Positions 31,953-54,382 of a stretch of 64,000 nucleotides of DNA are shown in pieces. The stretch covers positions 64,001-128,000 of the IMG/VR virus record IMGVR_UViG_3300030060_007423. The stretch is one strand, 5' to 3'. Below the pieces are notes generated by a model. It did not search any database and was not told the DNA's origin. It worked only from the letters and a program-made list of their open reading frames with translations. The position numbers and the translations under genes were made by a program. The stretch is from a virus. Each line of letters begins with the position of its first letter. The stretch's first letter is position 1.

Positions 31953-32558
31953 ATGAATATCACAAGAGAACAGGTAGAGGCGGCTGTAAAAGCAAAGGGC
32001 TACAGATGGTTTGAGAATGGCGACTATAATGTCAACATTGTTGGAATCAGAAATTCTGAAACGGGTAACACAGTTACAAACAAATTTGATGACAAAATAA
32101 CAATATCATTCAAGTGCGATGGCGAATGGGAATTTTATTGTTATGATTGTACAACAGACCCAGGAACACATTGGGTAGAAAACATAATGAGAAAGGAAGG
32201 AGTTGCTGTATTAAAACCAGGGCAATATCCAGGTTCTCATAAAATCAGATTACATCAGGGAAGATATGAAGCATTGGGACAAACAAAAAATGTCACAGTG
32301 TATCGTGATAATAATCGTGATGACAAGTATGACTTAGATGACAATAATACACAAACAGGATTATTTGGAATCAACATTCACAGAGCTACAAAATGGGGTG
32401 GAAGAAAATCTAGCCAAGTAGATAAGTGGAGTGCAGGTTGCCAAGTAATTGCTGCTAATGATGATTGGCATGAATTTTTAGATATATGTAGAGTTGCACG
32501 TGACAAATGGAGCAATAGTTTTACATATACGTTAATTGAATCAAAAGACATAGTATAA
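31953..32558 (+). CDS. putative endolysin / L,D-transpeptidase-like Cys protease
   Basis: GINIH…WSAGCQV matches the YkuD-type H…S.GC catalytic pattern; AGGAG RBS. Confidence 0.6.
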   Translation: MNITREQVEAAVKAKGYRWFENGDYNVNIVGIRNSETGNTVTNKFDDKITISFKCDGEWEFYCYDCTTDPGTHWVENIMRKEGVAVLKPGQYPGSHKIRLHQGRYEALGQTKNVTVYRDNNRDDKYDLDDNNTQTGLFGINIHRATKWGGRKSSQVDKWSAGCQVIAANDDWHEFLDICRVARDKWSNSFTYTLIESKDIV

Positions 32559-32905
32559 TGAAATTACAAGATATACTTACAGAAAAGAACAAGGGACTCT
32601 GGGCAAACATCCATGCTAAAAAGAAGCGTGGTGAAAAGTCAGACCCTCGTTCTAAATCTTACCAAGACGCAAAAAAAGCTGGTGAGAAACTTGCAAAACA
32701 AAATGAAGAACTAACAGAAGCTGAAATGGACAAACAATTTGCAAAAGAATTTGAGTCCAACTGTAAAGCATTTATTAATCATATAAAACACGAACTAAAA
32801 ACAGCTGAAAGTTCTGATGCGATGGTACTAAGAAAAATGCTAAAAGCTTTACTAGTAGTTTCAGGCTATCCAAAATTAATGTCTAGAATCGTAGGAGAGA
32901 AATAA
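32558..32905 (+). CDS. putative internal virion protein (N-terminal MKLQDILTE)
   Basis: Shared N-terminal motif; GLWANIHAK module; internal ELTE. Confidence 0.6.
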   Translation: MKLQDILTEKNKGLWANIHAKKKRGEKSDPRSKSYQDAKKAGEKLAKQNEELTEAEMDKQFAKEFESNCKAFINHIKHELKTAESSDAMVLRKMLKALLVVSGYPKLMSRIVGEK

Positions 32906-33144: not shown

Positions 33145-33146
33145 TC

Positions 33147-33623: not shown

Positions 33624-34012
33624 TGGATAAGTATATCTACAGGGCAAAATTAGATAGGGTAGTTGATGGTGATACTATTGATGCTCTTATCGATGTAGGT
33701 TTTGATATATGGGTTAAGAAAAGAATCAGATATATGGGAATTGATACTTGGGAAAGTAGAACTCGAGACCTGGATGAAAAGAAAAAAGGATTAGCTGCAA
33801 AGGCTAGAAATAAACAACTATTAGATGAAGTATCCAGTAAGCCTGGATACTTTAGATTAAAATCTTACGGAGTTGGTAAATATGGTAGAGTACTTGGTGA
33901 GATTTTTATAATGGACAGTGAAGGTAAGCAATATAATATAAATGAACAACTTAAAGCCGAGGGACATGCTTACGAGTATCACGGCGGCAAAAAACAAGTA
34001 TTCAAAGGATAA
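33623..34012 (+). CDS. thermonuclease (SNase) family protein
   Basis: VVDGDTID, R..GIDT.E, GKYGR.LG, EGHA. Confidence 0.9.
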   Translation: MDKYIYRAKLDRVVDGDTIDALIDVGFDIWVKKRIRYMGIDTWESRTRDLDEKKKGLAAKARNKQLLDEVSSKPGYFRLKSYGVGKYGRVLGEIFIMDSEGKQYNINEQLKAEGHAYEYHGGKKQVFKG

Positions 34013-34017
34013 AAGAA

Positions 34018-34332
34018 ATGGCAAAAAAAGTAAAAAAGGCTGTAAAGAAAACAGCAAAGAAAGTTGTAAAAAAAGTTTTAGATTCAACAACTATCGATGA
34101 AAAAATTATTGAAAACATAGACAAGAATAGAAGTCTATATAATTTAATCTTATGTTACATTAAATGTTATGGTGGCTATTTATTGGCAGTAGGTGCTGGA
34201 TGTACTTATGGTGCAAACATTTGGTGGGGATTAGCATTAACCGTTGGTGCAGGTGCATGGGCATATTGGCAAGTATGTAAATGTAAAGCTTGTAAAACAA
34301 ATATGCCAGGTGGTACTTGTTGTAATGAATAA
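34018..34332 (+). CDS. membrane protein with basic N-terminus and Cys-rich C-terminus
   Basis: KKxxKK repeats, two hydrophobic segments, CKCKAC…CC. Confidence 0.6.
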   Translation: MAKKVKKAVKKTAKKVVKKVLDSTTIDEKIIENIDKNRSLYNLILCYIKCYGGYLLAVGAGCTYGANIWWGLALTVGAGAWAYWQVCKCKACKTNMPGGTCCNE

Positions 34333-34564
34333 GTTAGTATTAATATTTATGATACTGACATTGAGTTCATGTATGGTATCACAGAAAGCATACGATACAA
34401 AATGTGCAGAATATGATGCACAAATAGTTGAGCTTGAAAGTAAAGCTCGTGGCATGGAAATGAAAGAACAACTTTTAAGAGAAAAATTGCATAATGTAAT
34501 TACAGAACTTAAAAAATTAAAAGATCCAAACAACCAGCCACCACACGACCCAGCAAACGACTAG
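34325..34564 (+). CDS. coiled-coil lipoprotein
   Basis: MNKLVLIFMILTLSS-C lipobox (ATG 34325), then coiled coil. Confidence 0.65.
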   Translation: MNKLVLIFMILTLSSCMVSQKAYDTKCAEYDAQIVELESKARGMEMKEQLLREKLHNVITELKKLKDPNNQPPHDPAND

Positions 34565-34573
34565 GAGAAAAAA

Positions 34574-34879
34574 ATGATTAAATTGTCTAAAATATTAAAT
34601 GAAGATGGCTATAAAGGATTATTAGATGATATTCCTGGAGCAAAAGTATACACTGCATCTGGTGGTGGAACTGCTGAAACACAATCAACCAAAAAGATTT
34701 GGGATGATGGAACACCTGTTCTTAAGTATATTGCAAGAGCACCTAAAAAGACAATTAAGTTACCTAGAAAGTTTAAGGTTGTTGATGATACAAAATATGG
34801 CTGGTGGTACTTTCAGATTGGAAATGTTTGGCATGGAATTGACAAAGACAAATACGGAACACCACCGTTTGAATATTAA
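34574..34879 (+). CDS. putative internal virion protein (MIKLSKILNE)
   Basis: Shared N-terminal motif; AGGAG RBS. Confidence 0.6.
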   Translation: MIKLSKILNEDGYKGLLDDIPGAKVYTASGGGTAETQSTKKIWDDGTPVLKYIARAPKKTIKLPRKFKVVDDTKYGWWYFQIGNVWHGIDKDKYGTPPFEY

Positions 34880-34895
34880 ATAAAGGAGAATTGTT

Positions 34896-35045
34896 ATGAT
34901 AAATTGGATAAACGGCTTTGATGCCGGAAATAAAAAAGAAAAGTACTACATTGAATTTAGAGTAGGTACTTTTACAGTATTAGAAATGAAGTGGGAATCT
35001 AAGAAATTTAGATTTATGATATTTAATTTGGGATTTGAAATATGA
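34896..35045 (+). CDS. small hypothetical protein (49 aa)
   Basis: AAGGAG RBS, MINWINGF…GFEI; ATGA overlap with next gene. Confidence 0.65.
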   Translation: MINWINGFDAGNKKEKYYIEFRVGTFTVLEMKWESKKFRFMIFNLGFEI

Positions 35046-38000
35046 AAAAGTTATTATTTTTATTGCTATTATTACCATCGGTTATATTAGCACAAAACAG
35101 TTGGATAAACATACAATTATTAACAGATGACTATCCAGAAGAAACTTCTTGGACTATAACACCTCCAGGTGGTTCTCCAATTATTGCTCAGTCTGATTCT
35201 ATAATGACAGACTTAACATTATATGATACAACAATTGCTGTAGGTGGAACTATAGTTGTTAATTTATACGACGAGTATGGAGATGGTTTAGGTGGATTTA
35301 ATGGTTCACCAGAAGGTTGGTTTTTAATTCAAAATGATTGTCAAGATACATTATTATATGTGGCAGGAGATTTTGGAGCTTTATATACTGACACTTTAAC
35401 AATAGCACCTTGTGCACCTCCAGTATCTGGATGTACTGATGTAAATGCTACCAATTATGATTCACTCGCCACAGCCGATGATGGTTCTTGTACCTATCCT
35501 CCATGTGGCGGTTTAGTTTTTAGTAATGCATATCAACAATGTCAACCAAATGGTCAAGCATTGGCTATATTTGAATGGGAAACAGATGCATACAATCCAA
35601 CTTGTGAAGTAGTCAAAGTATGGATTAGCAATGAAAACGGTTTAGGACCATTACAGTTTCCAGGTTCATGGCCATCAGGAGGACCTCATAACTTTGCATT
35701 TAATGCAGGTCCAGGACAAATGCCACCAAATTGGTCAGAAGAGTTTTATTGTCAAGTAGAATTTGCAGATGGTTCATTATCAGATACTATTGCATACACA
35801 CCAACACCATGTATTCCAGGTTGTACTGACCCAACACAAATAGCATATAATCCTTGGGCTACAATAGATGATGGTTCATGTAGTGGAACAACTTGTGACA
35901 CAAATACACAATATCAAATATCCATTTCAATAACATTAGATAATTGGCCAGGTGAAACAAGCTGGCAATTTGTTGATGGTTTAGGTAATACATTTGACTA
36001 TCCAGTAGGAACATATGATTTTAATGATATAGGACAAACTTATACTTACGCATTCTGTGTAGACCAAAATGCAGCTTTTGAAATGATTATCAATGATGAT
36101 TATGGTGATGGTATGGCTGGTTCAACATCAGGTGGAACAATGGATGGTGAAATTTTTATATATGATTGTTCAGGAGATACTATTTGGTATATGGACAATC
36201 CTGGTTTTGGAACTGTATTATATTCAGGTCCACAAACAGCAACACCTTGTCCTACTATTCCAGTAATAGACGGATGTACAGATGATGATTATGTTGAGTT
36301 TAATCCTCAAGCAAATAATGATGATGGTAGTTGCTTAACATTACATACTTACGGTTGTACAGACCCAGCAGCGTTTAACTATGATCCTTCAGCAACTATG
36401 ATGGACTTAACACCAGATTGTAATTACGAACTATGGATTGGAGATGCTGGCGGTGATGGTTGGGGTAATTCATTTATAGGTGTATATCAAAATGGTATTA
36501 ATCTTGGAACATATACAATGGGACCAGGTAATTATCAACAAACCTTTAATGTAATTTTAGACCCAGGAGTTCCAGTAGAAGTATTTTATTTTGAAGTAGG
36601 TGGACCACAACAACCACCAGAAGAGGTACAATTTCAAACTTGGCATAATTCATTTAAGTTAACAAATGCAGATGGTGTTGAACTAATGTATGAAGGACAG
36701 AATCCATTTGCAAATAATGGTCAAGGAGCACTTCAAGGATTTGGAGCACCATTCTTTACAAAATATGTAGCAGTTCCATTTTGTGGAAATACTTGTATTC
36801 CAACAGTATTGGGTTGTATGGACTCATTATCTGTAAACTTTGACCCAAATGCAAATGTAGATGATGGTTCTTGTATTCCTGAAATTTTAGGATGTACTAA
36901 CCTTTTAGCATTTAACTATGACCCAAATGCAACTTTGGATGATGGTTCATGTATTCCAGTTGTAAATGGATGTATGGATTCATTGGCATATAATTTTAAT
37001 CCTTTAGCTAATACACCAGATGGAAGTTGTGTATTTTTAGGATGTACAGATAATTTAGCTTGTAATTATGATGCAATTGCAAATGTAGATAATGGAGGTT
37101 GTACTTACCCAGCTCAATATTACGATTGTTATGGAGCATGTATAAATGATACTGATGGTGATGGTGTTTGTGATGAGTTGGAAGTTTTAGGATGTACGGA
37201 TCCATTATCAACTAATTTTAATCCTGCAGCTACAGATGACGATGGTACTTGTATACCAATTATTTATGGATGTACTGACCCAACAATGTATAACTATAGT
37301 GTAACTGCTAATACAGATGATGGTAGTTGTGTACCGTACATTTATGGATGTACTGACCCAACAATGTTTAATTATGATGTAACTGCAAACACTGACGATG
37401 GTACATGTATACCTATTGTTATTGGTTGTATGGATGTAACTATGTGGAACTATGATCCTTTAGCTAACACATCATCAGGAAATTGTATTCCATTCATATA
37501 TGGTTGTATGGACCCAACGATGTTTAATTATGATCCGTTGGCGAATACAGATAATGGTACATGTGAGCCATTTGTTTATGGATGTACTGACCAAACTGCA
37601 CTTAACTTTAACCCATTAGCAAATACTTTAGATAATAGTTGTTGTTATATTGCAGGATGTACTGACGCATCAGCACTTAATTATGATCCAGACGCATGTT
37701 ATGATGACAATTCATGTATAACAATTGTAACAGGTTGTACTGATGTAACGGCTTACAACTATAACCCAGCTGCAAATGTTTCAGATTCAAGTTGTTTATA
37801 TGATGCAGGTTGTTATGGTGGACCAGGAGTTCCATATTGGTTGAATGATGGATGTTATGCTTGGGTAATTGATGTTGATGATTATTGTTGTACAAATGAT
37901 TGGGATGTAAACTGTCAATCAATGTATGATTATTGTGAACAAGGTTGGCCAGTGTCAACTGAAGAATTATCTGGTTCAGGTACAATATTGGTATATCCAA

Positions 38001-38191
38001 ACCCAACGCCAGATGTATTAAATATTGATACACGATTAGATGTTGAAGTTGAATTATATGATATGATGGGAAGAAAACTTATCGTAACAACTGATAAGAG
38101 AATAGACATATCTAAATTTGATTCTGGAGTATACAACATGATAATTATATACGACAACCTTAGATTTAGTAAAAGGGTAATAAAACAGTAA
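35042..38191 (+). CDS. large secreted Cys/Asp-rich repeat protein with T9SS type A C-terminal sorting domain
   Basis: Sec signal (…VILA|Q), 16 GC(T/M)D…N(Y/F)…DDG.C repeats, C-terminal VYPNP…LYDMMG…ID…SGVY…K. Confidence 0.88.
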   Translation: MKKLLFLLLLLPSVILAQNSWINIQLLTDDYPEETSWTITPPGGSPIIAQSDSIMTDLTLYDTTIAVGGTIVVNLYDEYGDGLGGFNGSPEGWFLIQNDCQDTLLYVAGDFGALYTDTLTIAPCAPPVSGCTDVNATNYDSLATADDGSCTYPPCGGLVFSNAYQQCQPNGQALAIFEWETDAYNPTCEVVKVWISNENGLGPLQFPGSWPSGGPHNFAFNAGPGQMPPNWSEEFYCQVEFADGSLSDTIAYTPTPCIPGCTDPTQIAYNPWATIDDGSCSGTTCDTNTQYQISISITLDNWPGETSWQFVDGLGNTFDYPVGTYDFNDIGQTYTYAFCVDQNAAFEMIINDDYGDGMAGSTSGGTMDGEIFIYDCSGDTIWYMDNPGFGTVLYSGPQTATPCPTIPVIDGCTDDDYVEFNPQANNDDGSCLTLHTYGCTDPAAFNYDPSATMMDLTPDCNYELWIGDAGGDGWGNSFIGVYQNGINLGTYTMGPGNYQQTFNVILDPGVPVEVFYFEVGGPQQPPEEVQFQTWHNSFKLTNADGVELMYEGQNPFANNGQGALQGFGAPFFTKYVAVPFCGNTCIPTVLGCMDSLSVNFDPNANVDDGSCIPEILGCTNLLAFNYDPNATLDDGSCIPVVNGCMDSLAYNFNPLANTPDGSCVFLGCTDNLACNYDAIANVDNGGCTYPAQYYDCYGACINDTDGDGVCDELEVLGCTDPLSTNFNPAATDDDGTCIPIIYGCTDPTMYNYSVTANTDDGSCVPYIYGCTDPTMFNYDVTANTDDGTCIPIVIGCMDVTMWNYDPLANTSSGNCIPFIYGCMDPTMFNYDPLANTDNGTCEPFVYGCTDQTALNFNPLANTLDNSCCYIAGCTDASALNYDPDACYDDNSCITIVTGCTDVTAYNYNPAANVSDSSCLYDAGCYGGPGVPYWLNDGCYAWVIDVDDYCCTNDWDVNCQSMYDYCEQGWPVSTEELSGSGTILVYPNPTPDVLNIDTRLDVEVELYDMMGRKLIVTTDKRIDISKFDSGVYNMIIIYDNLRFSKRVIKQ
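36812..37797 (+). repeat. tandem ~26-aa (78-bp) GCTD repeats, 12 units
   Basis: Repeated ggatgtactgaccc…gatggt..ttgt units within the 35042 gene. Confidence 0.85.
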
Positions 38192-38601
38192 TGAAAAAAT
38201 TTATTAATTGGCATAAGCTTACTATAGGTAAATTACAAAATATCTTGAGAATAGATTCATATCAAACTTTATGGATAAGTTTTGTTAAGGGATTATTTAT
38301 AGGGTATTTACTATGTATGCTTACAAGTTGTGCACTAACATATGAAGCACCACATAAATGCGAATTAATGCTAAGAGGTGAACCTTGCTTAACCAGCCAT
38401 GTATGCTGTAATCCACCTCAGACATATCATTATGAAACATATCCAAATTACTATAATTGGTGGTGGCTAACACGACCAAAGCATACTACTAATTATGTAA
38501 TTGTAAAACCAAATAATAAACCTACATATAATGGTCATAGACCAAATTGGAATAATAAGCCTAATAATAAGCCTAATAAAAATAGGAGTAAAAGAAAATG
38601 A
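38191..38601 (+). CDS. membrane/lipoprotein with Asn-Lys-Pro low-complexity tail
   Basis: TM followed by LTSC; NNKP repeats. Confidence 0.6.
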   Translation: MKKFINWHKLTIGKLQNILRIDSYQTLWISFVKGLFIGYLLCMLTSCALTYEAPHKCELMLRGEPCLTSHVCCNPPQTYHYETYPNYYNWWWLTRPKHTTNYVIVKPNNKPTYNGHRPNWNNKPNNKPNKNRSKRK

Positions 38602-39677
38602 AAAAGTTACTAATCATACTATGTATGTTACCAGCATTTATGTTTGGTCAAGAAGTTAAAGACAACAAGTTTGAAAAAATACAGAAAAGTCTTAAAAAGA
38701 CATTTAAGTTTGCAACATTTTATGGAGCTGTGAACGGTGGTAATTCAGTATCAGATGTAGATGTATTTAGTGTTACAAACGGATTACAAACAAATACAAT
38801 CCAAACTCCTTTTGATTATTCACTTACAGCTGGTGTAAGAAAGATTGCTAGGTTAGGCTACGAAAATAGAGCTAACACATTTTATAATGGTACCGAGAAT
38901 AGTTTTAGTGATGCTGCAACAATTGGTAGGGTTAGTGGCTTTGAATTTCTATTTGAGGCTGACTACAGAAGACAACAAGGTCAAAACTTTTTAGACCAAA
39001 ACCACTTTTTAAGATATGTTGCAGATAGATATATTGTTAAAGTAGAGTATTTACAAGATGGTTTTGCTGATATACAATATTTTGAAGCTTCACAGAGATT
39101 TAGACAAAAAGTAGGAAACAAATTATCATTTAATATTGGTGCAGTACAAAGATTGTCTGAACCTTATGGATATGACCCATTAGAGGAATGGATGTTATCA
39201 AATGGTAATTTACATTATACATCCCTTGCTATTCAAGAAGGATATACAGTTCAATTTGATGGTCAAGGTGGTGAAACATATTATAACCCATCAGGACAAG
39301 TAGTTGCGGAAAATACACAAATATGGGAAGGTGTTGTTATACCTACTGTATTGTCAGATTATACAGAAAAGAAGAGAAATCAACTAGACCAAACATTCCA
39401 ATACTCAGTAGTTGTTGGTTTTGATTTCTATCATTTTACAAAAGAATTTTGGTTACATTCATGGGGTAATGTAATGCCATATCATTATGATGATGGTGGT
39501 GAATTTAGTTATCATGAATATAATGGTGGACAATGGGTAGACTATTCAGGTGGTCTTATATTTGGATATTATGTTATACCAAAAAAATTAGGGTTATTTG
39601 TTGAAGGAAAATACAATAAGTACTGGAATCGTAATTGGCATGATTTCAGCTTTGGACTTAACTACGTAATATTTTAG
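38598..39677 (+). CDS. putative outer-membrane beta-barrel protein
   Basis: Signal peptide (…FMFG|Q), alternating aromatic strands, C-terminal FGLNYVIF beta-signal. Confidence 0.7.
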   Translation: MKKLLIILCMLPAFMFGQEVKDNKFEKIQKSLKKTFKFATFYGAVNGGNSVSDVDVFSVTNGLQTNTIQTPFDYSLTAGVRKIARLGYENRANTFYNGTENSFSDAATIGRVSGFEFLFEADYRRQQGQNFLDQNHFLRYVADRYIVKVEYLQDGFADIQYFEASQRFRQKVGNKLSFNIGAVQRLSEPYGYDPLEEWMLSNGNLHYTSLAIQEGYTVQFDGQGGETYYNPSGQVVAENTQIWEGVVIPTVLSDYTEKKRNQLDQTFQYSVVVGFDFYHFTKEFWLHSWGNVMPYHYDDGGEFSYHEYNGGQWVDYSGGLIFGYYVIPKKLGLFVEGKYNKYWNRNWHDFSFGLNYVIF

Positions 39678-39687
39678 GAGTTTACAA

Positions 39688-39978
39688 ATGGCAAAGGAAT
39701 TAAATGAAGATTCAGGTTTTAAGGTTAGTATAAAAACTTTAATAGCAATTGGATTCGCAATGGCAACAATCATAGGGATGTGGTTTGCTCTTCAAGCAGA
39801 TATTGAAGAGGCAAAAGAATTACCAGTTCCACCACCACCTGATGTTACCAGGATGGAATTTGATATGAAAGATAAGAACATACGTCTAACTATCGAGAAT
39901 ACTCAAGAAGATGTTGAAGAAATAAAAGAAGATTTGGATAGGATTGAAGAAAAAATTGACGAATTAAACAGGAGATAA
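39688..39978 (+). CDS. single-TM coiled-coil protein
   Basis: TM, PPPP linker, acidic coiled coil. Confidence 0.7.
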   Translation: MAKELNEDSGFKVSIKTLIAIGFAMATIIGMWFALQADIEEAKELPVPPPPDVTRMEFDMKDKNIRLTIENTQEDVEEIKEDLDRIEEKIDELNRR

Positions 39979-39981
39979 GTT

Positions 39982-40335
39982 ATGAAATTTATTAAATTGA
40001 TTATAGTTATGTTTATGATGTTACCACTTATTAGTTTTGGCCAAACGTTAAAGCTTGGTAGTGGTGTACAAGTAGTTCACTTCAACGCAAATTGGAATTC
40101 AGCAAATGATGTTAAGTGGGTTAAAGGTTTAAGTGACTGTAAAATAAAATCATGTGATATAGCTACAGATACTAAAGCACAAAATAAATGGGAAATAGTA
40201 GTTGTACCAACAATTATAATTTTTAATGATGGAGAAGAGGTTAAAAGATTTCAAGCAGATATATCTTTTGCCATGAAGGCAACCCAAGAGGAGGTTCAGG
40301 AAAAAATAGATGAAATATTAATGGAGGGATTCTAA
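39982..40335 (+). CDS. exported thioredoxin-fold protein lacking CxxC
   Basis: Signal peptide; VHFNANWN in place of WCxxC; VPTIIIF.DGEEV.R. Confidence 0.75.
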   Translation: MKFIKLIIVMFMMLPLISFGQTLKLGSGVQVVHFNANWNSANDVKWVKGLSDCKIKSCDIATDTKAQNKWEIVVVPTIIIFNDGEEVKRFQADISFAMKATQEEVQEKIDEILMEGF

Positions 40336-40556
40336 TGTGGAAATTATTCAAAGACGAAAATGATATAAACGAAAAAGCTATTGTTGGCTTTGCATCTTTT
40401 ATCTTAATGGTATTATTTGCAATTTGTGATTTAATTACTGGATGGTGTGGTATGGAACTTGTAATAAATGAAGTAATATATAATTCATTTGTTATTGTAA
40501 CATTAGGTAGCTTTGGTATAAGTTCAATAGAAAAAATCAAAGGCAATGGAAAGTAA
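40335..40556 (+). CDS. small two-TM membrane protein (holin-like)
   Basis: Two TM segments, charged termini. Confidence 0.6.
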   Translation: MWKLFKDENDINEKAIVGFASFILMVLFAICDLITGWCGMELVINEVIYNSFVIVTLGSFGISSIEKIKGNGK

Positions 40557-40942
40557 TGATTAAATTAACAGATATACTATTTGAGTATGTAACAAAGAGT
40601 GACATGCGTAGTATTGAAAACTATGCAGATAAACTTTTTGCAGCAGCAGGTATTGATGTTGATTTTACACGTCACTTTAGACAACGTGTTAATGATGAAA
40701 GAAATATAAAACCAATTACAGCAGCAGAACTAATAGGTGTATTTAAGAGGACATGGAAGAAGTACGGAAAAAAACTACCAGAATTAACGGCAAATGCTGA
40801 AGCTGTAATAAAAGACATGAGAAGTGATATAAATATGCCATTTGTATTTACACAAGATAAAGGTGGCGAATTGGATTTAATTGCTAAAACCATAATGAGA
40901 AAGAAAAACTTTCGAACAACAAATAAAGTATTGGATATATAA
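40556..40942 (+). CDS. putative internal virion protein (MIKLTDILFE), possible RNase-toxin-like domain
   Basis: Shared N-terminal motif; FTRHF..R…KTIMRK. Confidence 0.55.
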   Translation: MIKLTDILFEYVTKSDMRSIENYADKLFAAAGIDVDFTRHFRQRVNDERNIKPITAAELIGVFKRTWKKYGKKLPELTANAEAVIKDMRSDINMPFVFTQDKGGELDLIAKTIMRKKNFRTTNKVLDI

Positions 40943-40944
40943 TT

Positions 40945-41418
40945 ATGACAAAATTTAATGACGCAAAATGGAGAAGAGAAATATTAGAAGGTAAGCACCA
41001 ATTAAACGAGTTTACTGAATATGGTTTTGACCCTAGAGAAATGCACCAGAGAAATTCTGAAAACCCACAAAAAGTTGTAAGTGCATTAAAGAAAGCAGGC
41101 TTTTCAAAAATAAACCTTGGTAAAGCTCAAAAACAAGTAAGAAGTTTGGATATGAATAAAACTCGAGGCGTTATGTTTGTTCATGTACAATATCACGTTA
41201 TTGAAGGAAAGGACGGAAAGAAATACTTTATACATCAATCACAATATCATCATAGAGATTTTGGAACAGGTGGTGTAAATCTAACAGCAGTGTATGTAGA
41301 GGAGAGACCTAACTATCCAGATAAAGGTGGTGAAAAAGAAATAGGAAGAGCAGTTTTTCTTAAAGATGATTTCTTAGACGGTTTGAAAAAAGTTAATGTA
41401 TTGAAACGGGCTTCATGA
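40945..41418 (+). CDS. hypothetical protein (…EILE…QLNE leader)
   Basis: 157 aa ORF in the array. Confidence 0.6.
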   Translation: MTKFNDAKWRREILEGKHQLNEFTEYGFDPREMHQRNSENPQKVVSALKKAGFSKINLGKAQKQVRSLDMNKTRGVMFVHVQYHVIEGKDGKKYFIHQSQYHHRDFGTGGVNLTAVYVEERPNYPDKGGEKEIGRAVFLKDDFLDGLKKVNVLKRAS

Positions 41419-42116
41419 TTAAACTTGTTGACATATTAACAGAAGGTGTATATGACCCAGGTATATTTAAGGCTGTGTTCACAGCTGGTGGACCTGGTAG
41501 TGGAAAGTCATATGTTGCATCTACATTATTTGGTATGCCAGAAAAAATGCCATTTGTTTCTGCAAAGGGACTAAAATCTGTTAATAGTGACAAGTACTTT
41601 GAAACATATTTGAAAATGAGTGGACTATCTCAAGATATTGCAAAGATGACACCAGCAGAATATGAACAAGCTATGGAAATAAGAAAGAAGAGTAAAAAAG
41701 TTAGAGATGCTGCTCTTAAGAATTATATAAATGGAAGACTTGGTTTGCTAATTGATGGAACTGGAAAAGATTATTCAAAAATAGCAAAACAAAAAAGTAG
41801 ATTGGAATCTGTTGGCTATGATTGTTTCATGGTGTTTGTAAATACAGATTTAGAAGTTGCACTTAAAAGAAACCAAAAACGTGAAAGAAAAGTACCAACT
41901 GATGTTGTAAAGAAAGGTTGGTCAGATGTACAAAGTAATGTTGGAAAGTTTCAAAGTTTATTTGGTGCAAGCAATATGTTAATTGTAGATAATAGTGAAT
42001 ATAAAGACTTTGGAAAAATTGTTAAGCGTGGTGCAAATTCATTTATTTCTAGACCTTTACAAAATCCAAAAGCAAAGGCATGGATTAAAAAAGAATTGGA
42101 GTTGAGAAAATCATGA
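41415..42116 (+). CDS. P-loop kinase, zeta-toxin/AAA_33-like, with MIKLVDILTE leader
   Basis: GGPGSGKS, VNSD, IDGTG, A..RN..R.R. Confidence 0.8.
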   Translation: MIKLVDILTEGVYDPGIFKAVFTAGGPGSGKSYVASTLFGMPEKMPFVSAKGLKSVNSDKYFETYLKMSGLSQDIAKMTPAEYEQAMEIRKKSKKVRDAALKNYINGRLGLLIDGTGKDYSKIAKQKSRLESVGYDCFMVFVNTDLEVALKRNQKRERKVPTDVVKKGWSDVQSNVGKFQSLFGASNMLIVDNSEYKDFGKIVKRGANSFISRPLQNPKAKAWIKKELELRKS

Positions 42117-43456
42117 GTAAATTATTAAATGAAATTAAAAATATGATACACCAAGAATTGAATGAAATCAGAAAAGGTGATTATGTTGATTCAATGGGTG
42201 AAGTTGGATTAGTTAATAAGGTTAAAGGTCAAGTGGCATATGTTAAATTTCCATCAAAGCCAGGAAGCTTTCATCCTATATTGGCCTCATCTCTAAAAAA
42301 AGCTGGTAAACATAAAGGTAAAGACTTATATTCAGAAGGCAAATTAAATGAAAATGTTAGAATGCCAGCAAAGGATTGGATAAACATTAGATTAGTACAA
42401 ATGCTACTTAAATCTGGTGACTTAAAGAAATACAAATCAGTATTACAAAAAGCTCAAGGACAAGATGGCAAAAAAGCTATTGACATGATATATAAAAAAA
42501 TCGTATTACCTTTACATAAAGCTATGAAAATAGACCCAACTAAAGTAAAAGATTTACGAAGTTATATAGCTAAGTATGGTGAAGATAAATTTACAGATGC
42601 TTGGAATAAACTTTATAAACAGGGTGTAAGTGGAAGTTATCTCTATGCACTTGCAGGAACTATATTTCAAGGTATGGAAAGATATGATTATGTTTCAAAA
42701 CCACTTGGCTTAACAGAAGCATCTACACCATCATTACCTTCTGAAGTAAAAAGATACATGGAAAAGTTTTTATCAGCAATTAAAGGTGCAAATCTAAATC
42801 GCCAAAAACAAAAAGTTTTATTGGCTGGATTGATAGAGGCATTAGGAATAGACTCTGGTGAATTGATGATGTTAGTAAACAAAATCAAAAAAGGACTTAA
42901 GACTGAAGATAAAGAAGAACAAGATGAAGTTGGATTGCAAATGCCATTCGTAATGGTTTCTTCTGTAGATGAAGGCAAATTAAATGAAAGTATGATTGGT
43001 ATAAAAACTAAAGCAAACTTCAAACCTTTACAACTTAAAGGAGCATTGGAAAGAGCTGGAATTAAAGGTTTTCAGATGAATAGATTATCTGTGACTCTAA
43101 CAGCATTAAAATTAGATAAAAAATACTTTAAGAAAGCTAAAGAGATTGTTGATAAGTTAGGACTTTCTGTTATGATGGCAAAAGAATCTGTAAATGAAGC
43201 TACTAATCTTTGGAAACACTTCGATGCAAAGATGAAATTACAAGATACTATTATGGACCTTGAATATGATATGAAAATGATAACTAAAGATATAGCTCAA
43301 CTTCATAAAGATATGGAACAAGAGGCAGAACCAGAAGGCGGTCCTAAAGCTACTAGATATGGTAGAGACATCGAAAAGAAAGAAAAAGAATACAAAAAGA
43401 AAAAAGCTGAGTTCAAAAAACTTATGGCTAAATTGGATAGAATGGAACAATACTAA
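42113..43456 (+). CDS. multi-module putative internal virion polyprotein
   Basis: Modules separated by EGKLNE (twice), GLTE and ESVNE. Confidence 0.6.
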   Translation: MSKLLNEIKNMIHQELNEIRKGDYVDSMGEVGLVNKVKGQVAYVKFPSKPGSFHPILASSLKKAGKHKGKDLYSEGKLNENVRMPAKDWINIRLVQMLLKSGDLKKYKSVLQKAQGQDGKKAIDMIYKKIVLPLHKAMKIDPTKVKDLRSYIAKYGEDKFTDAWNKLYKQGVSGSYLYALAGTIFQGMERYDYVSKPLGLTEASTPSLPSEVKRYMEKFLSAIKGANLNRQKQKVLLAGLIEALGIDSGELMMLVNKIKKGLKTEDKEEQDEVGLQMPFVMVSSVDEGKLNESMIGIKTKANFKPLQLKGALERAGIKGFQMNRLSVTLTALKLDKKYFKKAKEIVDKLGLSVMMAKESVNEATNLWKHFDAKMKLQDTIMDLEYDMKMITKDIAQLHKDMEQEAEPEGGPKATRYGRDIEKKEKEYKKKKAEFKKLMAKLDRMEQY

Positions 43457-44682
43457 TGATTAGTTTGGTTGACATAGTAAACCTTAATAAATTGGTGTAT
43501 TCAGAAGACATCAAAAAGAAACATTTGGATGTAATAAATAATCCATCTCCTCTTTTTGAAAAATTTGATTTAACACAATGGATGGGAACTCCTCCTCCAC
43601 AAAATGGTAGTAGAACAACATTTAAGGAAATACTTCAGATAGATAGTATTCCAATGGATAGTGAATTTATTCATAGTGGTGATAAAACTATAAAATATTT
43701 TGAAAATTGGTTTATTGAAAATACATGTGGATGTAATCATACATTTCCAAAAGCATATATAAATAAAATAAAAGATGCAACAAGACCTTTAATTCTAAAG
43801 TTAAAATATCATTATAATCGTCCAAGACCTATACAGGTTGCAGAAACACATGGATTAAAGTTTCATGAAGAACCATTGGAGAGTGCAAAAACTCCAGCAT
43901 ATCCAAGTGGACATGCAACACAAGGAATGTTAATAGCTATGGTTCTATCTGAAATGTACCCAGAACATACTGGTGAATTAATGAATTTAGGTACTGATGT
44001 TGCAAACTCAAGAATGGTTGCAAAGGTACATTATCCATCTGACACAAAATTTGGATGTGATTTAGCAAAAGCATTATTTAATCATATTAAACAAAATTCT
44101 AATATGAAAGAAAATATTGTAGAAAATAAAATTGTCAAAACCAAAAAACTTACCCTTAAGAATTTATTATCAGAAAATTATGATTTAGACAATCATCCAA
44201 AAAAGAAATGGATAAAGCAACAACTATCTTCAATAGATAAAAAAATAATGGAGTATTTGTTCAAACAGTACAAAGCAGTTTACTCGGCAGAAGGAATGGA
44301 CTTATCAGCGTTTAGTGCAAGTGAATTACAAAGTAGTTACCAAGTAGTAATGTTGATTGATGTTGACAAAGATCCTATGCCAGATGCATTTATATTTACA
44401 AGAGGTAATCGTGTAAAGTTATTAGCAACTGATGGACAAGGACCAAGTAAAAGTGCTGTAGTTAAAAAAGTTGTTAACATGGTAAAATCAGAAGGATACA
44501 ACTTAGAAGCTAGTAAAAAAATGAATGACATTATGATAGGTAAAGGCGCACCTGTTATAACTGATAAAAATAAAATTGAAAAAATGGTAGGACCAAAATT
44601 TATAAAACACCTTGACAATGGATATTATGAAAGAAAACTTAAAAAAGGTGGTAATGTTGTAAAAAGAATGTATGGGAAATAG
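43456..44682 (+). CDS. PAP2/haloperoxidase-family phosphatase fused to a second domain
   Basis: K…..RPRP, YPSGH, SR…..HYPSD; internal LKNLLSE. Confidence 0.82.
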   Translation: MISLVDIVNLNKLVYSEDIKKKHLDVINNPSPLFEKFDLTQWMGTPPPQNGSRTTFKEILQIDSIPMDSEFIHSGDKTIKYFENWFIENTCGCNHTFPKAYINKIKDATRPLILKLKYHYNRPRPIQVAETHGLKFHEEPLESAKTPAYPSGHATQGMLIAMVLSEMYPEHTGELMNLGTDVANSRMVAKVHYPSDTKFGCDLAKALFNHIKQNSNMKENIVENKIVKTKKLTLKNLLSENYDLDNHPKKKWIKQQLSSIDKKIMEYLFKQYKAVYSAEGMDLSAFSASELQSSYQVVMLIDVDKDPMPDAFIFTRGNRVKLLATDGQGPSKSAVVKKVVNMVKSEGYNLEASKKMNDIMIGKGAPVITDKNKIEKMVGPKFIKHLDNGYYERKLKKGGNVVKRMYGK

Positions 44683-44684
44683 AT

Positions 44685-45962
44685 ATGGCTAAAATAAAAA
44701 AAGGTAGTATTGTAATACCTAAAATCGGTGTACACAAAGGCGAAAAGCACACTGTAATTCATGACTTTGGAAATGGTACATATAATATACAACCAATGGG
44801 ATTTAGAAACAAATACCACTTAGGAGCAGCTGGTGCAAAGGCAAGTGACTTAAAATTGGTTAAAGAAGACAAAGACATTGGCCATCAAGATGATGAACCA
44901 AACATGTTAAAATCCACTGCATTGGAAATAATGGAGTATGGTAAAAAACTTATGGATAAGTTAGATAAGTATGATGATATGGAAGAAGAAGTTGATTTTC
45001 CTAATTGGTGGCAATCAAAGCTTATTATATCAAAAGAATATCTACAAAAAGCTTATCACTATCTAGATTCTGAAGAAAAAACTAAAGAAGATAAAGTAGA
45101 TGAATCAACAGAAACTGATGAGCTAAAAGTATTACTACGTGATTTAATACAGAAAGAAATGGAAGAAAGAGCCGTAGTATCTAAAATACCATCAGCTTAT
45201 GGATATGACGAAGATGTAGCAGGAATATCTGTTAATGGTTCAGATGTTGAAGAATCAACAAAAGAGTATGGTAAATCTCTCAAAAAAATAGCATTGGATA
45301 AACAATTAAAAATGTTATCTAAAAAAGATAAAGAAACATTGTTAAAAATTGCAAAACTAATGGGTAAAGAAAAACTCAAAGAAGTTATTGAAAAAGCCAA
45401 TAAATTAAATGAAGCAAACAAGTACCCAACAGTTTCAAACAAGTTTAAGAACGCATTAGACAGATTACCAGAAAAACATTTTCATAGAAAAGGTGTAAAG
45501 GCATTAATCAAAAAACTAAAAGAAAAAGACCCAGAAGCTGCAATGGCATATACAATGGCCGCATTTGGTTGGATGAAGAATATGAAAGAAGGGTTTGCTA
45601 GTTATGCACAGCAAAAAGCAGCATACGCTAGTGGATACAAAGGCAAAGGAAAGAAAAAAAGAAAAAAAGAATCTATGGCTAGTCACCCAGTTGTTAAACA
45701 AGGATTTGCAATAGGTAAAGCTAGTACTGTTGGTGGTGAGGAAATGTCATCTGCATCTGGAATATCTGATAGTGATGAAGACCCAACAGATAATCATTCT
45801 AAAAAAGTTAAAGAAATTGTAAAAGCTGAACTTAAAAAGGCAGGTCTTGAAGATGATTATAATATTTTAGATGTAATCACATCCTTAGGTTTAGAAAATA
45901 CAAATGAGTCAAAATTTATTAAAGTAGTTAGGGAAGAAATAAATAAACAGTTGGAGTTGTAA
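44685..45962 (+). CDS. multi-module putative internal virion polyprotein
   Basis: Modules (DIGHQDDEP…WWQSK; GFAS..Q.KA) separated by LVKE, VDE, LNE, TNE. Confidence 0.55.
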   Translation: MAKIKKGSIVIPKIGVHKGEKHTVIHDFGNGTYNIQPMGFRNKYHLGAAGAKASDLKLVKEDKDIGHQDDEPNMLKSTALEIMEYGKKLMDKLDKYDDMEEEVDFPNWWQSKLIISKEYLQKAYHYLDSEEKTKEDKVDESTETDELKVLLRDLIQKEMEERAVVSKIPSAYGYDEDVAGISVNGSDVEESTKEYGKSLKKIALDKQLKMLSKKDKETLLKIAKLMGKEKLKEVIEKANKLNEANKYPTVSNKFKNALDRLPEKHFHRKGVKALIKKLKEKDPEAAMAYTMAAFGWMKNMKEGFASYAQQKAAYASGYKGKGKKKRKKESMASHPVVKQGFAIGKASTVGGEEMSSASGISDSDEDPTDNHSKKVKEIVKAELKKAGLEDDYNILDVITSLGLENTNESKFIKVVREEINKQLEL

Positions 45963-46684
45963 TGGTTTTAAGAATGACATTTAGTGGTAGCCAGCAAATC
46001 ATTGAAGAAGTCTGTGAACATTGTGGTGAAAAGATTGAAGATGTACAACACAGTGAAATAATAGTACAGAAAGATACTGACAAGCGAAGATTGAGAATGC
46101 AGGATAGGGATGGACAGAGAAGAGAACTATTTAAGAAGGCAGATAAAATTGCAGGTATAAAGGCATCAGCATCTGCACAAGGAATGTATGATAGAGCTAT
46201 TGATGGAGATGACTTAAAGTATAGTGTACGTGCAGAAAGAATGTGTAGTTCAAGTGATGGCACAACTACTCAATTTTGTTATAGGGTTACAAATCCAAAA
46301 TTTTTAGCAAAGACTAAGGCAGATGGAACAAGTCTTAGTGCTAGTTTTTTTGATCCAAATGAACCATTAATAAACGAAACCGGTTCAAAGGTTGGATTAG
46401 ATAGGCGAGGAAATGTTGTTAGATTAAAAGAGGAAACTAAAGAAGGTGGTAGTAGAAGACAAAAGGGAGCCTTTGGAGTTACTTGGTTTGCAAATTTAGA
46501 TGCTAGGCGACAAAAAACTGTGTTGGAACAATATCGTGGTTGTAGCTACATGTTAAGATTAGGTGCACAACAAGCAAGTGCTGAAGATGTCCCAGGATTT
46601 CAAAAAGGTGAAATGGGTGAAGGATTGGCAACATTTAGATCTTTAGAAGAATTTAAGTTAGCACACAGTAGATACTGTAGTTAA
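45962..46684 (+). CDS. hypothetical protein (N-terminal CEHC)
   Basis: 240 aa, TAATG-coupled. Confidence 0.65.
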   Translation: MVLRMTFSGSQQIIEEVCEHCGEKIEDVQHSEIIVQKDTDKRRLRMQDRDGQRRELFKKADKIAGIKASASAQGMYDRAIDGDDLKYSVRAERMCSSSDGTTTQFCYRVTNPKFLAKTKADGTSLSASFFDPNEPLINETGSKVGLDRRGNVVRLKEETKEGGSRRQKGAFGVTWFANLDARRQKTVLEQYRGCSYMLRLGAQQASAEDVPGFQKGEMGEGLATFRSLEEFKLAHSRYCS

Positions 46685-46696
46685 GAGGAAATAATT

Positions 46697-47029
46697 ATGG
46701 AAAAAATATTATATAGAAATGAAAATTTAAGACTTGAAATATACGAGACGGCTGAACCTATATTGTTTACTGAGGCTGAATATCAAGGTCGTAAAGTTAA
46801 ACTTAACAAGATAATGCAAGGTGATGCAAAAAAGTTTAAGGTATATGTTAAAAATCCAAAGGGAAATGTTGTTAAAGTAAACTTTGGACAAGGTGGTGAT
46901 GCTAAAGGTGGAACTATGCGTATAAGAAAAAATAACCCAAAGGCCCGTAAAAACTTTAGGGCTAGATTTAATTGTGATACACCAGGACCTAAACACAAAG
47001 CAAGGTACTGGGCATGTAGAACTTGGTAG
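46697..47029 (+). CDS. conserved phage protein (DUF6321-like)
   Basis: E-AEYQGRKVKL…KKFKVYV…VKVNFG…FRAR.NC…ARYW.C..W. Confidence 0.7.
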   Translation: MEKILYRNENLRLEIYETAEPILFTEAEYQGRKVKLNKIMQGDAKKFKVYVKNPKGNVVKVNFGQGGDAKGGTMRIRKNNPKARKNFRARFNCDTPGPKHKARYWACRTW

Positions 47030-47038
47030 GAAATTATT

Positions 47039-47734
47039 ATGATAAAACAAACATTAAAAATAATTGAAAGAATTGGTTCAACTACATGGTCTGGGTATAC
47101 AGAAAAAGGTCGCTCATTAGACAATACTGTAGGTGGACAGCCAGCTGGCAAATCTCTTAAGAGACGTGTTGCAGATAATACAGTACCTGACCATGATGGA
47201 AAATCTGCACCGTATGGTTCAGCATATAAAAAAGTAAAAGACTTAGATGAGATGAGTGCAACTGCCAAAAAACATGGTAAGTTTGGTCTTACAAATGTAC
47301 CATTTCCAACTGAAGAACCAAATGAGTTTGCATATTTAGATTTTGTAAAGTATGTTAAGAAAAATGAAAAGAAAATCATGAAAGCATTATCAAATGTTAG
47401 AGGTGAAAGAATGTTTAAGGCAATTGAATCTGTATGGTCTAACTGGGATGATAAAGCAAATAAAGGAGCTTTTTCAAATATTCGTGGTAATAAGTTTGGT
47501 AGAGCATTAGTCTTAATGTTAAGAAAAGACGATTTAGTTTTTCAAAATACTGGAAACAAAATAACTAATCTAAAAGAAAAATATAATATTAGAAAGCAAT
47601 CTTGTACACAATCTGATGGAGACAAAGGAAATACAGTTTTATATTATACAACTAAAAAGGGTAAAAAACGTAGTAATTGTCATACATCAAAAAAGAATGC
47701 AAAAGACCAGATTGCAGCAATAGAGGGACCATAA
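47039..47734 (+). CDS. multi-module putative internal virion protein (MIKQTLKIIE)
   Basis: HDGKSAPYGS module; LDE and LKE linkers. Confidence 0.55.
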   Translation: MIKQTLKIIERIGSTTWSGYTEKGRSLDNTVGGQPAGKSLKRRVADNTVPDHDGKSAPYGSAYKKVKDLDEMSATAKKHGKFGLTNVPFPTEEPNEFAYLDFVKYVKKNEKKIMKALSNVRGERMFKAIESVWSNWDDKANKGAFSNIRGNKFGRALVLMLRKDDLVFQNTGNKITNLKEKYNIRKQSCTQSDGDKGNTVLYYTTKKGKKRSNCHTSKKNAKDQIAAIEGP

Positions 47735-47736
47735 TC

Positions 47737-48273
47737 ATGATAAAGAAAACATTACAACTTTTTGAAGATAAAAAATCATCCAGTGCAGATCCAAAAAAAT
47801 CACCAGAATATTACAAAGGACTTTCTGCAAAAGAAAAGAAAGAAAGATCAAATGTAATTGCACGTAGAAGTAAAATGGACGATGATGACCCAGAAGCATA
47901 TGCAAAATTTAGAAGTGATGCTGGTGAAAAAACTAAACCATCAAAGCATACTAATAAATTCAAACAAATGTTTGGTGAAGAAAAGTGGAATACTCTTAAA
48001 GAAGTATATGAAATGGCAAAAGGCCTAAATGAAATGAGTGCTGCTGTAAAAAAAGCATTAAAGAAAAAAGCTGATAAATCTGGAATGCCTTTAGGTGTAC
48101 TAAAGCAAGTATTTAACAGAGGAATGGCTGCATGGAAAACTGGACATAGACCTGGTGCAAGTCAACAACAGTGGGGATATGCAAGAGTAAATAGTTTTGC
48201 AACAAAAAGTCCAGGTACTTGGGGTAAAGCAGATAAAGATTTAGCTAAAAAGGTTAGAGGAAAAAAGAAATAG
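47737..48273 (+). CDS. DUF5824-like protein with MIKKTLQLFE leader
   Basis: TKPSKHT.KF, L.KKA..SG…L.QVF.RG.AAW.TGHRPG…WG.ARVNSF; ATG 47737. Confidence 0.7.
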   Translation: MIKKTLQLFEDKKSSSADPKKSPEYYKGLSAKEKKERSNVIARRSKMDDDDPEAYAKFRSDAGEKTKPSKHTNKFKQMFGEEKWNTLKEVYEMAKGLNEMSAAVKKALKKKADKSGMPLGVLKQVFNRGMAAWKTGHRPGASQQQWGYARVNSFATKSPGTWGKADKDLAKKVRGKKK

Positions 48274-48965
48274 TGATTAGCCTTAAACAAATATTAGAAG
48301 GTAGCAGTAATACTTCAACATACACAGCCGATAGTGGTGAACCTGATACAGGATTTTTACCAGGTGGAAAGGCAAGACGTCTTGGTATGAGAAAGGGTAA
48401 ACCTGAACCTTGGTTTGAAAATGGAGGATACACACAGGTTGATTTTCCTAAAGGTGATTACATATATGGAAAAAGAACACGAGCCGAATTTAGTGTAAAG
48501 AAACGAAACGTTAGAATGGTTGTAAAATTAAAAGAATCAAATAAACCATTGAACGAAAGATTTATTGTTGAATCATCAAAATCTGAAATTATGGATGTAG
48601 TCAATACAGTATATCCATATATAGTAAAAGATTTAGGTGGAAGAGCCGTAAAGGTTGAAGTACACAACAATATTTACAAAAGACTTGGTGCTGTTGGTGA
48701 AGAAGATTTAATGGTTGATAACAATCCTTATGGTGAATATGATTGGGATAAAAGAAAGATATATCTATACGCATCAGCAATAAAGAATACTGAACAAATA
48801 ATTAGGTCATTACTACATGAACATACCCATACATTACAGAGTAGAAAAAAGTTCAAAGCTGGATATGATAGTGGAAAATATGATTACAAAACTCATCCAT
48901 ATGAAAAAGCTGCAACACAAGCTGAAAGAAATTGGAAAAAATATTTGAAGTACCTAAATGATTAA
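48273..48965 (+). CDS. HExxH zinc metallopeptidase-domain protein with MISLKQILE leader
   Basis: LLHEHTH..Q…Y..HPYE..A; GTG start. Confidence 0.72.
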   Translation: MISLKQILEGSSNTSTYTADSGEPDTGFLPGGKARRLGMRKGKPEPWFENGGYTQVDFPKGDYIYGKRTRAEFSVKKRNVRMVVKLKESNKPLNERFIVESSKSEIMDVVNTVYPYIVKDLGGRAVKVEVHNNIYKRLGAVGEEDLMVDNNPYGEYDWDKRKIYLYASAIKNTEQIIRSLLHEHTHTLQSRKKFKAGYDSGKYDYKTHPYEKAATQAERNWKKYLKYLND

Positions 48966-49479
48966 ACTAAAAGACATATTACATGAAGGTATTACTCTCA
49001 GTATATTTGACTTTGATGATACATTGGCAAAAACTGATAGTTGGATATATGTTATTAAAAATGGACGAGAAGTAAAAAGATTAGACCCGGCACAATTTGC
49101 AACTTATACTCCAAAGGTTGGTGAAACATTTGATTTTAAGGATTTTGATAAAAAACTAAAAAACCCTAAAATCATAAAGAAAAACGTTGATTTATTACGT
49201 AAACAACTAAGTAAAGGTGGCAGGAAAGTGACTATATTAACTGCCAGAAGACTTGGTGCACCCATAAATTCTTTTTTCAAAACTCTAGGTATTCAGCCAT
49301 ACATTGTACCATTAGGTGATGCAAATCCACAAAAGAAAGCAGATTATATAGAAAAGCAAATAAGAAAAGGAAAGTATAATCCTATATACTTTATGGATGA
49401 TAGTCCAAAGAATATCAGAGCAGTTGACTCACTAAAAAAGAAATATCCTAGAATCAAACTAATAACCAAGCTTGTATGA
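48958..49479 (+). CDS. HAD-superfamily phosphatase with MIKLKDILHE leader
   Basis: FDFDDTL, ILTAR, K, FMDDS..N. Confidence 0.82.
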   Translation: MIKLKDILHEGITLSIFDFDDTLAKTDSWIYVIKNGREVKRLDPAQFATYTPKVGETFDFKDFDKKLKNPKIIKKNVDLLRKQLSKGGRKVTILTARRLGAPINSFFKTLGIQPYIVPLGDANPQKKADYIEKQIRKGKYNPIYFMDDSPKNIRAVDSLKKKYPRIKLITKLV

Positions 49480-53810: not shown

Positions 53811-53830
53811 TAATTGATAATACTAAAACT

Positions 53831-54352: not shown

Positions 54353-54382
54353 ACAAATTGGTAATAATAATAAATACTAAAT

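Follow-up and report, generated by a model that had tools for sequence, protein, structure and literature searches.

Why should a phage protein carry the same glutamate-ending hexapeptide twice, encoded both times by the same 19 nt? The question arises at three adjacent genes (positions 42113-45962) in a 64,000-nt stretch of DNA, here called the window, which comprises bases 64001-128000 of the 170.8-kb IMG/VR virus record IMGVR_UViG_3300030060_007423. The initial annotation proposed that these linkers are prohead-protease sites that release small domains from polyproteins and that their DNA could serve as in-frame recombination joints. We find that the three genes belong to a large uncharacterized family of T4-like myoviruses of Flavobacteriia, each protein of which strings together small modules, ~50-200 residues in length, that fold independently. 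The linkers are the exact points at which modules have been gained, lost, exchanged, and rearranged, both between paralogous genes and between phages.

Modules exchanged at linkers

The first gene has the following organization (here and below, a slash marks the boundary directly after a linker or leader glutamate).

42113..43456, plus strand: polyprotein gene, 447 amino acids (aa) (P0001), leader and five modules A-E; recognized from the open reading frame (ORF), motif enrichment, and mosaic homologs
42113..42166, plus strand: N-terminal leader MSKLLNE/IKNMIHQELNE/, from the translation; predicted helix with two L-N-E sites
42167..42352, plus strand: module A, residues 19-80, small beta-barrel ending in EGKLNE
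42353..42718, plus strand: module B, residues 81-202, helical, ending in LGLTE
42719..42988, plus strand: module C, residues 203-292, helical with an acidic tail, ending in EGKLNE
42989..43198, plus strand: module D, residues 293-362, alpha/beta ferredoxin/ACT-like fold, ending in ESVNE
43199..43453, plus strand: module E, residues 363-447, helical hairpin with the loop MEQEAEPEGG

The homologs of P0001 are mosaic, not collinear full-length proteins. A search of 5.8 billion proteins recovered 274 relatives, most of them 250-780 aa long and 70%-98% identical to P0001 over just 14%-40% of the query. The ends of the high-scoring segment pairs (HSPs) cluster at query residues 11-19, 73-82, 282-290, and 351-364, which correspond to the linkers ELNE18, EGKLNE80, EGKLNE292, and ESVNE362. 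Among distinct HSP boundaries, 35% lie at most five residues from an [LIV][NTS]E motif, compared with 12% for random positions. When 121 proteins were cut at [LIV][NTS]E, the resulting 573 segments fell into 134 families, and among pairs of homologous segments 43% aligned end to end, compared with 2% when the cuts are random. Every common segment family has many different left and right neighbors.

This segmentation reads P0001 as families F2-F25-F30-F1-F0, and its parts recur in many other orders. Module D (family F1) has 53 copies with many different neighbors. Module A stands in differing positions in P0014, P0057, P0065, and locus L005: P0014 has the order D-A-E, D is ahead of A in P0057 and P0065, and in L005 module B precedes module A, with both HSPs overlapping on the 19-nt linker. 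Module B occurs alone behind another leader in P0047, and module C is found in other contexts in P0013 and P0017, the first of which carries the same leader as P0001. Module E (family F0) is last in all 77 of its occurrences in the segmentation; it comprises 278 clusters at 50% identity, in proteins of 74-1005 aa, and is nearly always at the C-terminus. We count 323 IMG/VR stretches that encode a relative of modules D and E. The minimal members consist of a leader and module E alone (for example, MIKLKTILE/ and then the module), and the largest have ~15 or more linkers.

The exchanges can be located exactly in close relatives. In the closest, P0005 (86% identical), an unrelated cassette replaces module D precisely between ...SSVDE and ...NVNE. 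At the DNA level, for which we compared IMG/VR loci only, the syntenic contig L006 is 79%-91% identical to the window elsewhere, and its orthologous gene encodes the same leader. Homology stops at 42170, directly after the ELNE of the leader, returns at 42711-42988 (from LTE to EGKLNE), and returns again at 43191 (VNE), module D being absent. The window gene therefore differs from this 206-aa ortholog by two in-frame, linker-bounded cassettes. Modules recurring in different orders, with homology breakpoints at the linkers, had been predicted by the initial annotation and are seen here in both protein and DNA.

A structural model gives the same boundaries. The AlphaFold model of P0001, built on 92 homologs, contains a leader helix (residues 2-14) and five folded units. 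The predicted local distance difference test score (pLDDT) is ~96 at residues 24-75 of module A and above 90 in module D (292-357) and in the hairpin of module E (362-446); module B has helices over 86-191, and module C has a helical domain at 210-261. Besides a short dip at 154-157, pLDDT falls below 50 only at 78-84, 186-207, and 262-290, all of which are linkers. The first and third of these are flanked by domains with pLDDT >90, and moderately confident helical domains lie between them. ESVNE follows the final strand of module D and precedes the first helix of module E. Domain boundaries thus fall at the linkers, as expected by the initial annotation, and the linkers lie between folded domains and not inside them.

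The modules resemble little that is known. P0001 and P0003 (the product of the third gene) have no PHROG or Pfam match, hence no known homology to families of internal proteins (IPs) was found, and a Pfam scan of 92 family members returned only DUF5824, in two members, and one weak MS_channel match. Foldseek searches against PDB and BFVD and a search of the ESM Atlas gave nothing significant, with a weak ACT/ferredoxin-like similarity for module D only.

Cultured relatives of the phage are Flavobacterium immuto myoviruses only. A tblastn search of whole P0001 against 50,697 phage records, representing cultured phages, found no counterpart, and only the immuto phages share a module. The family member there is immuto26A_192 (841 aa; L089:6007-8532, MW353175.1 114006-116531), encoded just upstream of terL and the portal gene. 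In this protein the MEQEAEPEGG module is internal and not C-terminal, a DVGHQDNEP... module is present twice in diverged form, and an acidic Gly/Glu/Pro-rich tail stands at the end.

Linker DNA, leaders, and stand-alone modules

The two EGKLNE linkers of gene 42113 are encoded as follows.

42335..42353, plus strand: linker repeat copy 1, exact GAAGGCAAATTAAATGAAA, encoding EGKLNE (residues 75-80) with the rare Gly codon GGC
42971..42989, plus strand: linker repeat copy 2, exact GAAGGCAAATTAAATGAAA, encoding EGKLNE (residues 287-292)

The repeat noticed in the initial annotation is indeed identical at both positions. GAAGGCAAATTAAATGAAA had no match in 100 shuffles, and the window holds one near-match to it (at 28621, with two mismatches), also within a gene. 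Exact direct repeats of at least 19 nt form only three classes in the window, and codon shuffling within genes predicts 0.15 such repeats per window. Gene 42113 has six [LIV][NT]E sites where 0.46 are expected (P = 9e-6), which is the sole significant enrichment among the 203 ORFs of the genome. Each of the six sites coincides with a module boundary, and none falls within a part that the AlphaFold model folds with confidence. We considered an internal duplication as the origin of the repeat and rejected it, since the flanks of the two copies are alike only in EGKLNE and the same 18-mer is found at unrelated junctions in other phages.

The DNA of the linkers is more uniform than their peptide requires. 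Their consensus is GAAGGCAAATTAA[A/C]TGAA. The codon GGC is rare, with a share of ~8% among Gly codons overall, but encodes the Gly of 14 of 19 EGK[LI][NT]E linkers (distinct junctions), compared with nine of 153 non-linker EGK (P = 5e-11, Fisher's test); TTA is also over-used in linkers. Linkers of unrelated junctions have 88.7% identical codons, compared with 70% among orthologous copies of module D. These codon comparisons show linker DNA to be conserved beyond what codon bias explains, as would result if recombination at the linkers had homogenized them or if all had descended from one copy. Together with the linker-bounded in-frame indels, this conservation supports the suggestion that linker DNA can act as an in-frame recombination joint; the codon patterns fall short of proving that selection has favored recombination, and active recombination at the linkers is a possible cause. 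Less can be made of ESVNE, for which a match between 43184-43198 and 33438-33452, in gene 33147, had been reported. The match holds at 14 of 15 nt, but it is weak on its own, since an identical peptide combined with strong codon bias would produce it, and gene 33147 shares no module with the homolog pool.

The other two genes of the locus and several nearby genes show the same organization.

43456..44682, plus strand: two-module protein P0002, with a leader, a PAP2 phosphatase domain (Pfam E = 2.5e-12), a linker, and a C-terminal module
44143-44175, plus strand: leader-like internal linker KKLTLKNLLSE of P0002, followed by the C-terminal module (44176-44679)
44685..45962, plus strand: polyprotein P0003, 425 aa, with degenerate linkers LVKE, KVDE, DVEE, and KLNE, no module E, and mosaic homologs
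32558..32905, plus strand: stand-alone gene with leader MKLQDILTE/, two small modules, and an internal ELTE/
34574..34879, plus strand: stand-alone module gene with leader MIKLSKILNE/, matching the last module of P0047, which there follows DILTE/
46697..47029, plus strand: stand-alone module gene, the module running from AEYQGRKV directly after ...FTE/
47039..47734, plus strand: gene encoding the leader MIKQTLKIIE/ and, between DLDE/ and NLKE/, a module (residues ~65-181)
47737..48273, plus strand: gene encoding the leader MIKKTLQLFE/ and, behind GLNE/, a DUF5824-like module

In P0003 the module at residues 57-144 occurs in dozens of other architectures at 73%-94% identity, bounded in these partners by KIKE/ or KVTE/ upstream and by ESINE/ at its end; a gene of the immuto phages carries it as well. 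In the genes at 32558, 34574, 46697, 47039, and 47737, modules that elsewhere are internal parts of a protein stand alone, and in each gene the homology begins directly after the x-x-E of the leader. Residues 33-113 of 32558 match the C-terminal module of P0010, where it follows KLTE/. The module of 46697 is found at the C-termini of P0094, P0093, and P0053, after NIEE/, VITE/, and SVNE/, respectively, and that of 47039 is common to 49 pool proteins. Residues 93-169 of 47737 match the first module of P0099, L008, L019, and P0015, with Pfam DUF5824 detected in pool members.

The initial annotation had listed linkers of this kind in 44685, 47039, 47737, 48273, and 32558. Four of these genes do share modules with the pool, with boundaries directly after x-x-E, whereas no such sharing was found for 48273; 48273 and 33147 are accordingly not counted as members. 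Three genes absent from that list (34574, 46697, and 43456) also belong to the modular family.

The leaders follow the same peptide logic as the linkers. The C-terminal module of P0002 also exists as stand-alone proteins of 232-244 aa, whose N-terminal leader MKLLLENWREFLKE aligns with the internal KLTLKNLLSE of P0002, so that here a leader has become a linker. Alignments of this kind show that the N-terminal M(I)KLxxILxE leader can be interchanged with an internal linker. An N-terminus of the form M(I)K(L)xxI(L)xE is found in ten ORFs of the genome. Window positions 32558-49479 contain eight of these (32558, 33147, 34574, 40556, 41415, which encodes a zeta-toxin-like kinase, 47039, 47737, and 48958), and another is a scaffold-position gene adjoining the prohead protease gene outside the window (G000:C1:20039-20578). 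Judged by this distribution, the motif looks like a capsid-targeting leader common to an array of cargo genes.

A prohead protease and its possible substrates

A candidate protease for such sites is encoded in the genome. The gene at G000:C1:19448-19885 matches Peptidase_S77 with 100.8 bits (cut-off 27, E = 6.2e-30) and PHROG 207, head maturation protease (E = 6e-55). In a pairwise alignment with T4 gp21 the motifs GELNHP/GELDHP and SSRGLGS/SSRGLGS (the aligned forms of the two proteins separated by the slash) are kept; these contain the catalytic His and Ser of gp21. An S77 protease is present in eight of nine other records carrying these proteins, and the one record that lacks it is 42% complete.

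The prohead proteases of this lineage all cut after Glu, the leaders they remove in T4 are 10-20 residues long, and T4 gp23 is cut at FLTE/AEIGG, at the end of a 65-residue propeptide (PMC5694885). The leader of P0001 fits this T4-type pattern of ~10-20 residues ending in [L/I]-x-E. T4 gp24 starts with MAKINELLRE/S. In the phage studied here, the capsid protein has QLIDE/N aligned at the gp23 site and the N-terminus MSNIGNLLNE/A; [LF]-x-E/[SAG] near residues 6-11 is kept in four of five related capsid proteins, the fifth having LLND. The scaffold-position gene beside the protease combines a leader, MKLKKLYE, with SEVNE/A. Over 514 distinct contexts, the linker logo reads E, then G/E/S, K/S, L/V/I, N/T, and E, followed by A, S, or G.

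From these patterns we think it fairly probable that linkers and leaders are substrates of the S77 protease, that the precursors are packaged and cut into mini-proteins, and that the linkers double as recombination joints. The gp21-type protease would cut both linker and leader after the Glu of [L/I/V]-x-E. As prohead-protease substrates, the precursors would be loaded into the prohead core, targeted there by the leader and possibly also by the invariant C-terminal helical-hairpin module. Cleavage would yield free mini-proteins analogous to the T4 internal proteins, and these would probably be injected with the DNA. With one short in-frame sequence common to all junctions, recombination from linker to linker would give viable new combinations, and the protease site would serve as the recombination joint too.

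A more far-reaching proposal, to which we give slightly less than an even chance, is that the family forms an integron-like in-frame cassette system at the level of protein domains. Uniform 18-nt protease-site DNA would allow phage recombination to string, reorder, and exchange mini-protein effectors as polyproteins, and the effectors would be released in fixed stoichiometry in the capsid for injection. Because leaders and linkers appear interconvertible, genes could freely be joined into strings and released from them again.

Several observations weigh against these readings. We infer cleavage and packaging from sequence for every member. The presence of S77 proteases in the carriers is confounded, since all carriers are related phages. 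The head module of the record (large terminase, T4-type portal, gp21-type protease, scaffold-like proteins, and gp23-type capsid protein) lies upstream of the window, and the polyprotein gene cluster is ~86 kb from it, amid DNA-metabolism genes. No late-promoter signal was found: The T4-type late promoter TATAAATA has 24 matches where 14 are expected, none informatively placed. Annotation assigned no function to the modules, as 90 of the 92 members scanned are without a Pfam match and the fold searches are without a significant match. Instead of selection for recombination, the use of GGC could reflect translational pausing at domain boundaries or the descent of one linker copy, and assembly chimeras are possible for some metagenomic mosaics.

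Some of these points would suit multidomain proteins that are never cleaved, the E-G-K-L-N/T-E linker being a flexible spacer that travels with the cassettes, its likeness to a gp21 site a coincidence, and the intact chains acting in the virion or the cell. Like ordinary spacers, the linkers are located in disordered regions, the [LIV]xE motif is a short one for proteins with so much Glu and Lys, and the genes are remote from those of the head. Against this, the same modules exist as stand-alone proteins behind a leader with the same motif, and one such leader is fossilized as an internal linker, so that the intact chain as the functional unit is hard to explain. The P3-P2-P1-P1' pattern is identical to that of the T4 capsid site L-T-E/A, and the leader is found on the scaffold-position gene next to the protease as well. 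The nearly free order of the modules also argues against a cooperative multidomain machine. We regard uncleaved chains as improbable. Still less probable is a linker kept for a reason at the level of nucleic acid or translation, as the target of a recombinase or nuclease or as a rare-codon pause that aids module folding, with the peptide a by-product and no proteolysis. The strong over-use of GGC and TTA in linkers, and a codon identity higher between unrelated junctions than within an orthologous module, are what this would produce. However, the peptide pattern is kept in many linkers whose DNA differs (ESVNE, EGINE, and versions with GGT), and the N-terminal leaders share the peptide logic and not the 18-nt sequence, so selection acts at least on the peptide. 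Nor does the window give any sign of a wider non-coding DNA signal, as the exact 19-mer occurs there only twice and its sole near-match is intragenic.

That the recurrence of repeat and motif is due to chance or to metagenome assembly seems very improbable. By our own estimate, composition alone leads one to expect about one repeated hexapeptide within one protein per window, codon bias makes identical codons likely, and many homologs come from short metagenomic contigs. Chance is rejected by the codon-shuffling expectation, which is far lower within one gene than the figure given above for the window, by the motif enrichment, and by the excess of end-to-end segment pairs over random cuts. As for assembly, the linker-bounded indels separate two long contigs that are otherwise 80%-90% identical, and the same mosaic architecture is found in cultured immuto and in protein clusters on up to 36 contigs.

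The family combines the logic of three known systems, the T4 internal proteins with a capsid targeting sequence (CTS), the polyvalent proteins, and the PeSL cassettes, in a form that we did not find in the literature searched. The T4 internal proteins (IPI, IPII, IPIII, and Alt) lose a 10-20-residue N-terminal leader, are small, highly diverse, and fast evolving, and are injected and counter host defenses (PMC5694885, PMC3012670, PMC12373910). They share with the present family the S77 protease family (gp21), a cut, here predicted, after Glu in L/I-x-E, and a leader layout like M(I)KLxxILxE. Each T4 internal protein is a single domain with one cut, whereas here up to 15 or more modules are chained by a repeated internal site, with an invariant C-terminal module, conserved site DNA, and packaging and injection that are so far predicted. 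Polyvalent proteins, known from phages and from conjugative elements, are mosaics of 2-15 domains that are predicted to be packaged, delivered, and processed into separate units (Iyer et al. 2017; PMC5512222). Like them, the present proteins place several unrelated domains on one polypeptide, here drawn from the segment families described above in variable order and including ParB-like and PAP2 modules. The ParB-like case is a 952-aa member at L018:1412-4270 (IMGVR_UViG_3300027704_000015), one module of which has a ParB/sulfiredoxin-like DGHHR motif, suggesting enzymatic cargo embedded between the same linkers. Polyvalent proteins have recognized enzymatic domains and a predicted release by an embedded metallopeptidase (MPTase); here almost all modules are uncharacterized mini-domains and release is proposed to occur via the prohead protease at a stereotyped linker. 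The Pfam scan of 92 members contained no embedded MPTase and no MuF or portal-fusion anchor domain.

PeSL cassettes are bounded by ~100-bp intergenic promoter/stem-loop joints in the hyperplastic regions of T4-like phages, and PeSL-like sequences are present at T-even IP loci (PMC2839356, PMC4122927). The parallel lies in short conserved sequences that flank variable cassettes as homology patches and permit insertion, deletion, and exchange without dead chimeras. PeSL joints move whole genes, whereas here a coding sequence of 18-19 nt serves as the joint and the units moved, in frame, are protein domains; the joints are intragenic, not intergenic promoters and stem-loops flanking ORFs, and the promoter-like ATTCTAGTTATATTTATATATAA of the window lies elsewhere. 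Giant phages (phiKZ, 201phi2-1, and SPN3US) provide a further parallel, as a gp21-related protease cuts their ejection-protein precursors after Glu at several sites (PMC5694885, PMC10052503). Multiple cuts of this kind are what we predict here, although the giant-phage motif is A/S/G-x-E, the long propeptides are removed from single proteins, and no module shuffling or stereotyped linker has been described.

If the linkers are cleaved, tailed phages would have a new means of organizing their packaged cargo and of evolving it: the capsid maturation protease would process a combinatorial library of polyproteins, and its cleavage site would double as recombination joint. Hundreds of mosaic ORFs that lack annotation in Flavobacteriia phages of marine and fresh waters would thereby be explained, and mature virion mini-proteins, as candidate anti-defense effectors, could be predicted by a simple rule from sequence. 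The arrangement also suggests how nature's own design might be used to load T4-type capsids with several foreign proteins encoded by a single gene. A cultured host-phage pair is available in Flavobacterium sp. LMO8 and phage immuto.

Setting and other features of the record

The window has a GC content of ~31%, and all genes treated as real are on its plus strand. The record encodes a DNA polymerase B, a chaperonin, many glycosyltransferases, and a protein with a sorting domain of the type IX secretion system (T9SS), which points to a Bacteroidota host. This last protein (1049 aa, window 35042-38191) has TSP3-like repeats and a T9SS C-terminal sorting domain (Por_Secre_tail, E = 1e-9), by which we identify it as a putative phage-encoded cargo of the host T9SS. 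Its gene contains an exact 28-nt repeat, at 37262 and 37340.

The GTG listed as the start of the DNA polymerase B ORF (1205-3727) falls within a tRNA-His gene (1171-1245), and the true start of the polymerase is probably a downstream ATG near 1289. An intergenic, promoter-like repeat TTTTTTTTCCCAATAATTCTAGTTATATTTATATATAA is found at window positions 258-286, 53772-53815, 54316-54353, and 60838-60856. Its core ATTCTAGTTATATTTATATATAA occurs at these four places (258, 53787, 54331, and 60838) with 19-38 nt exact, and the repeat probably represents a class of phage promoter.

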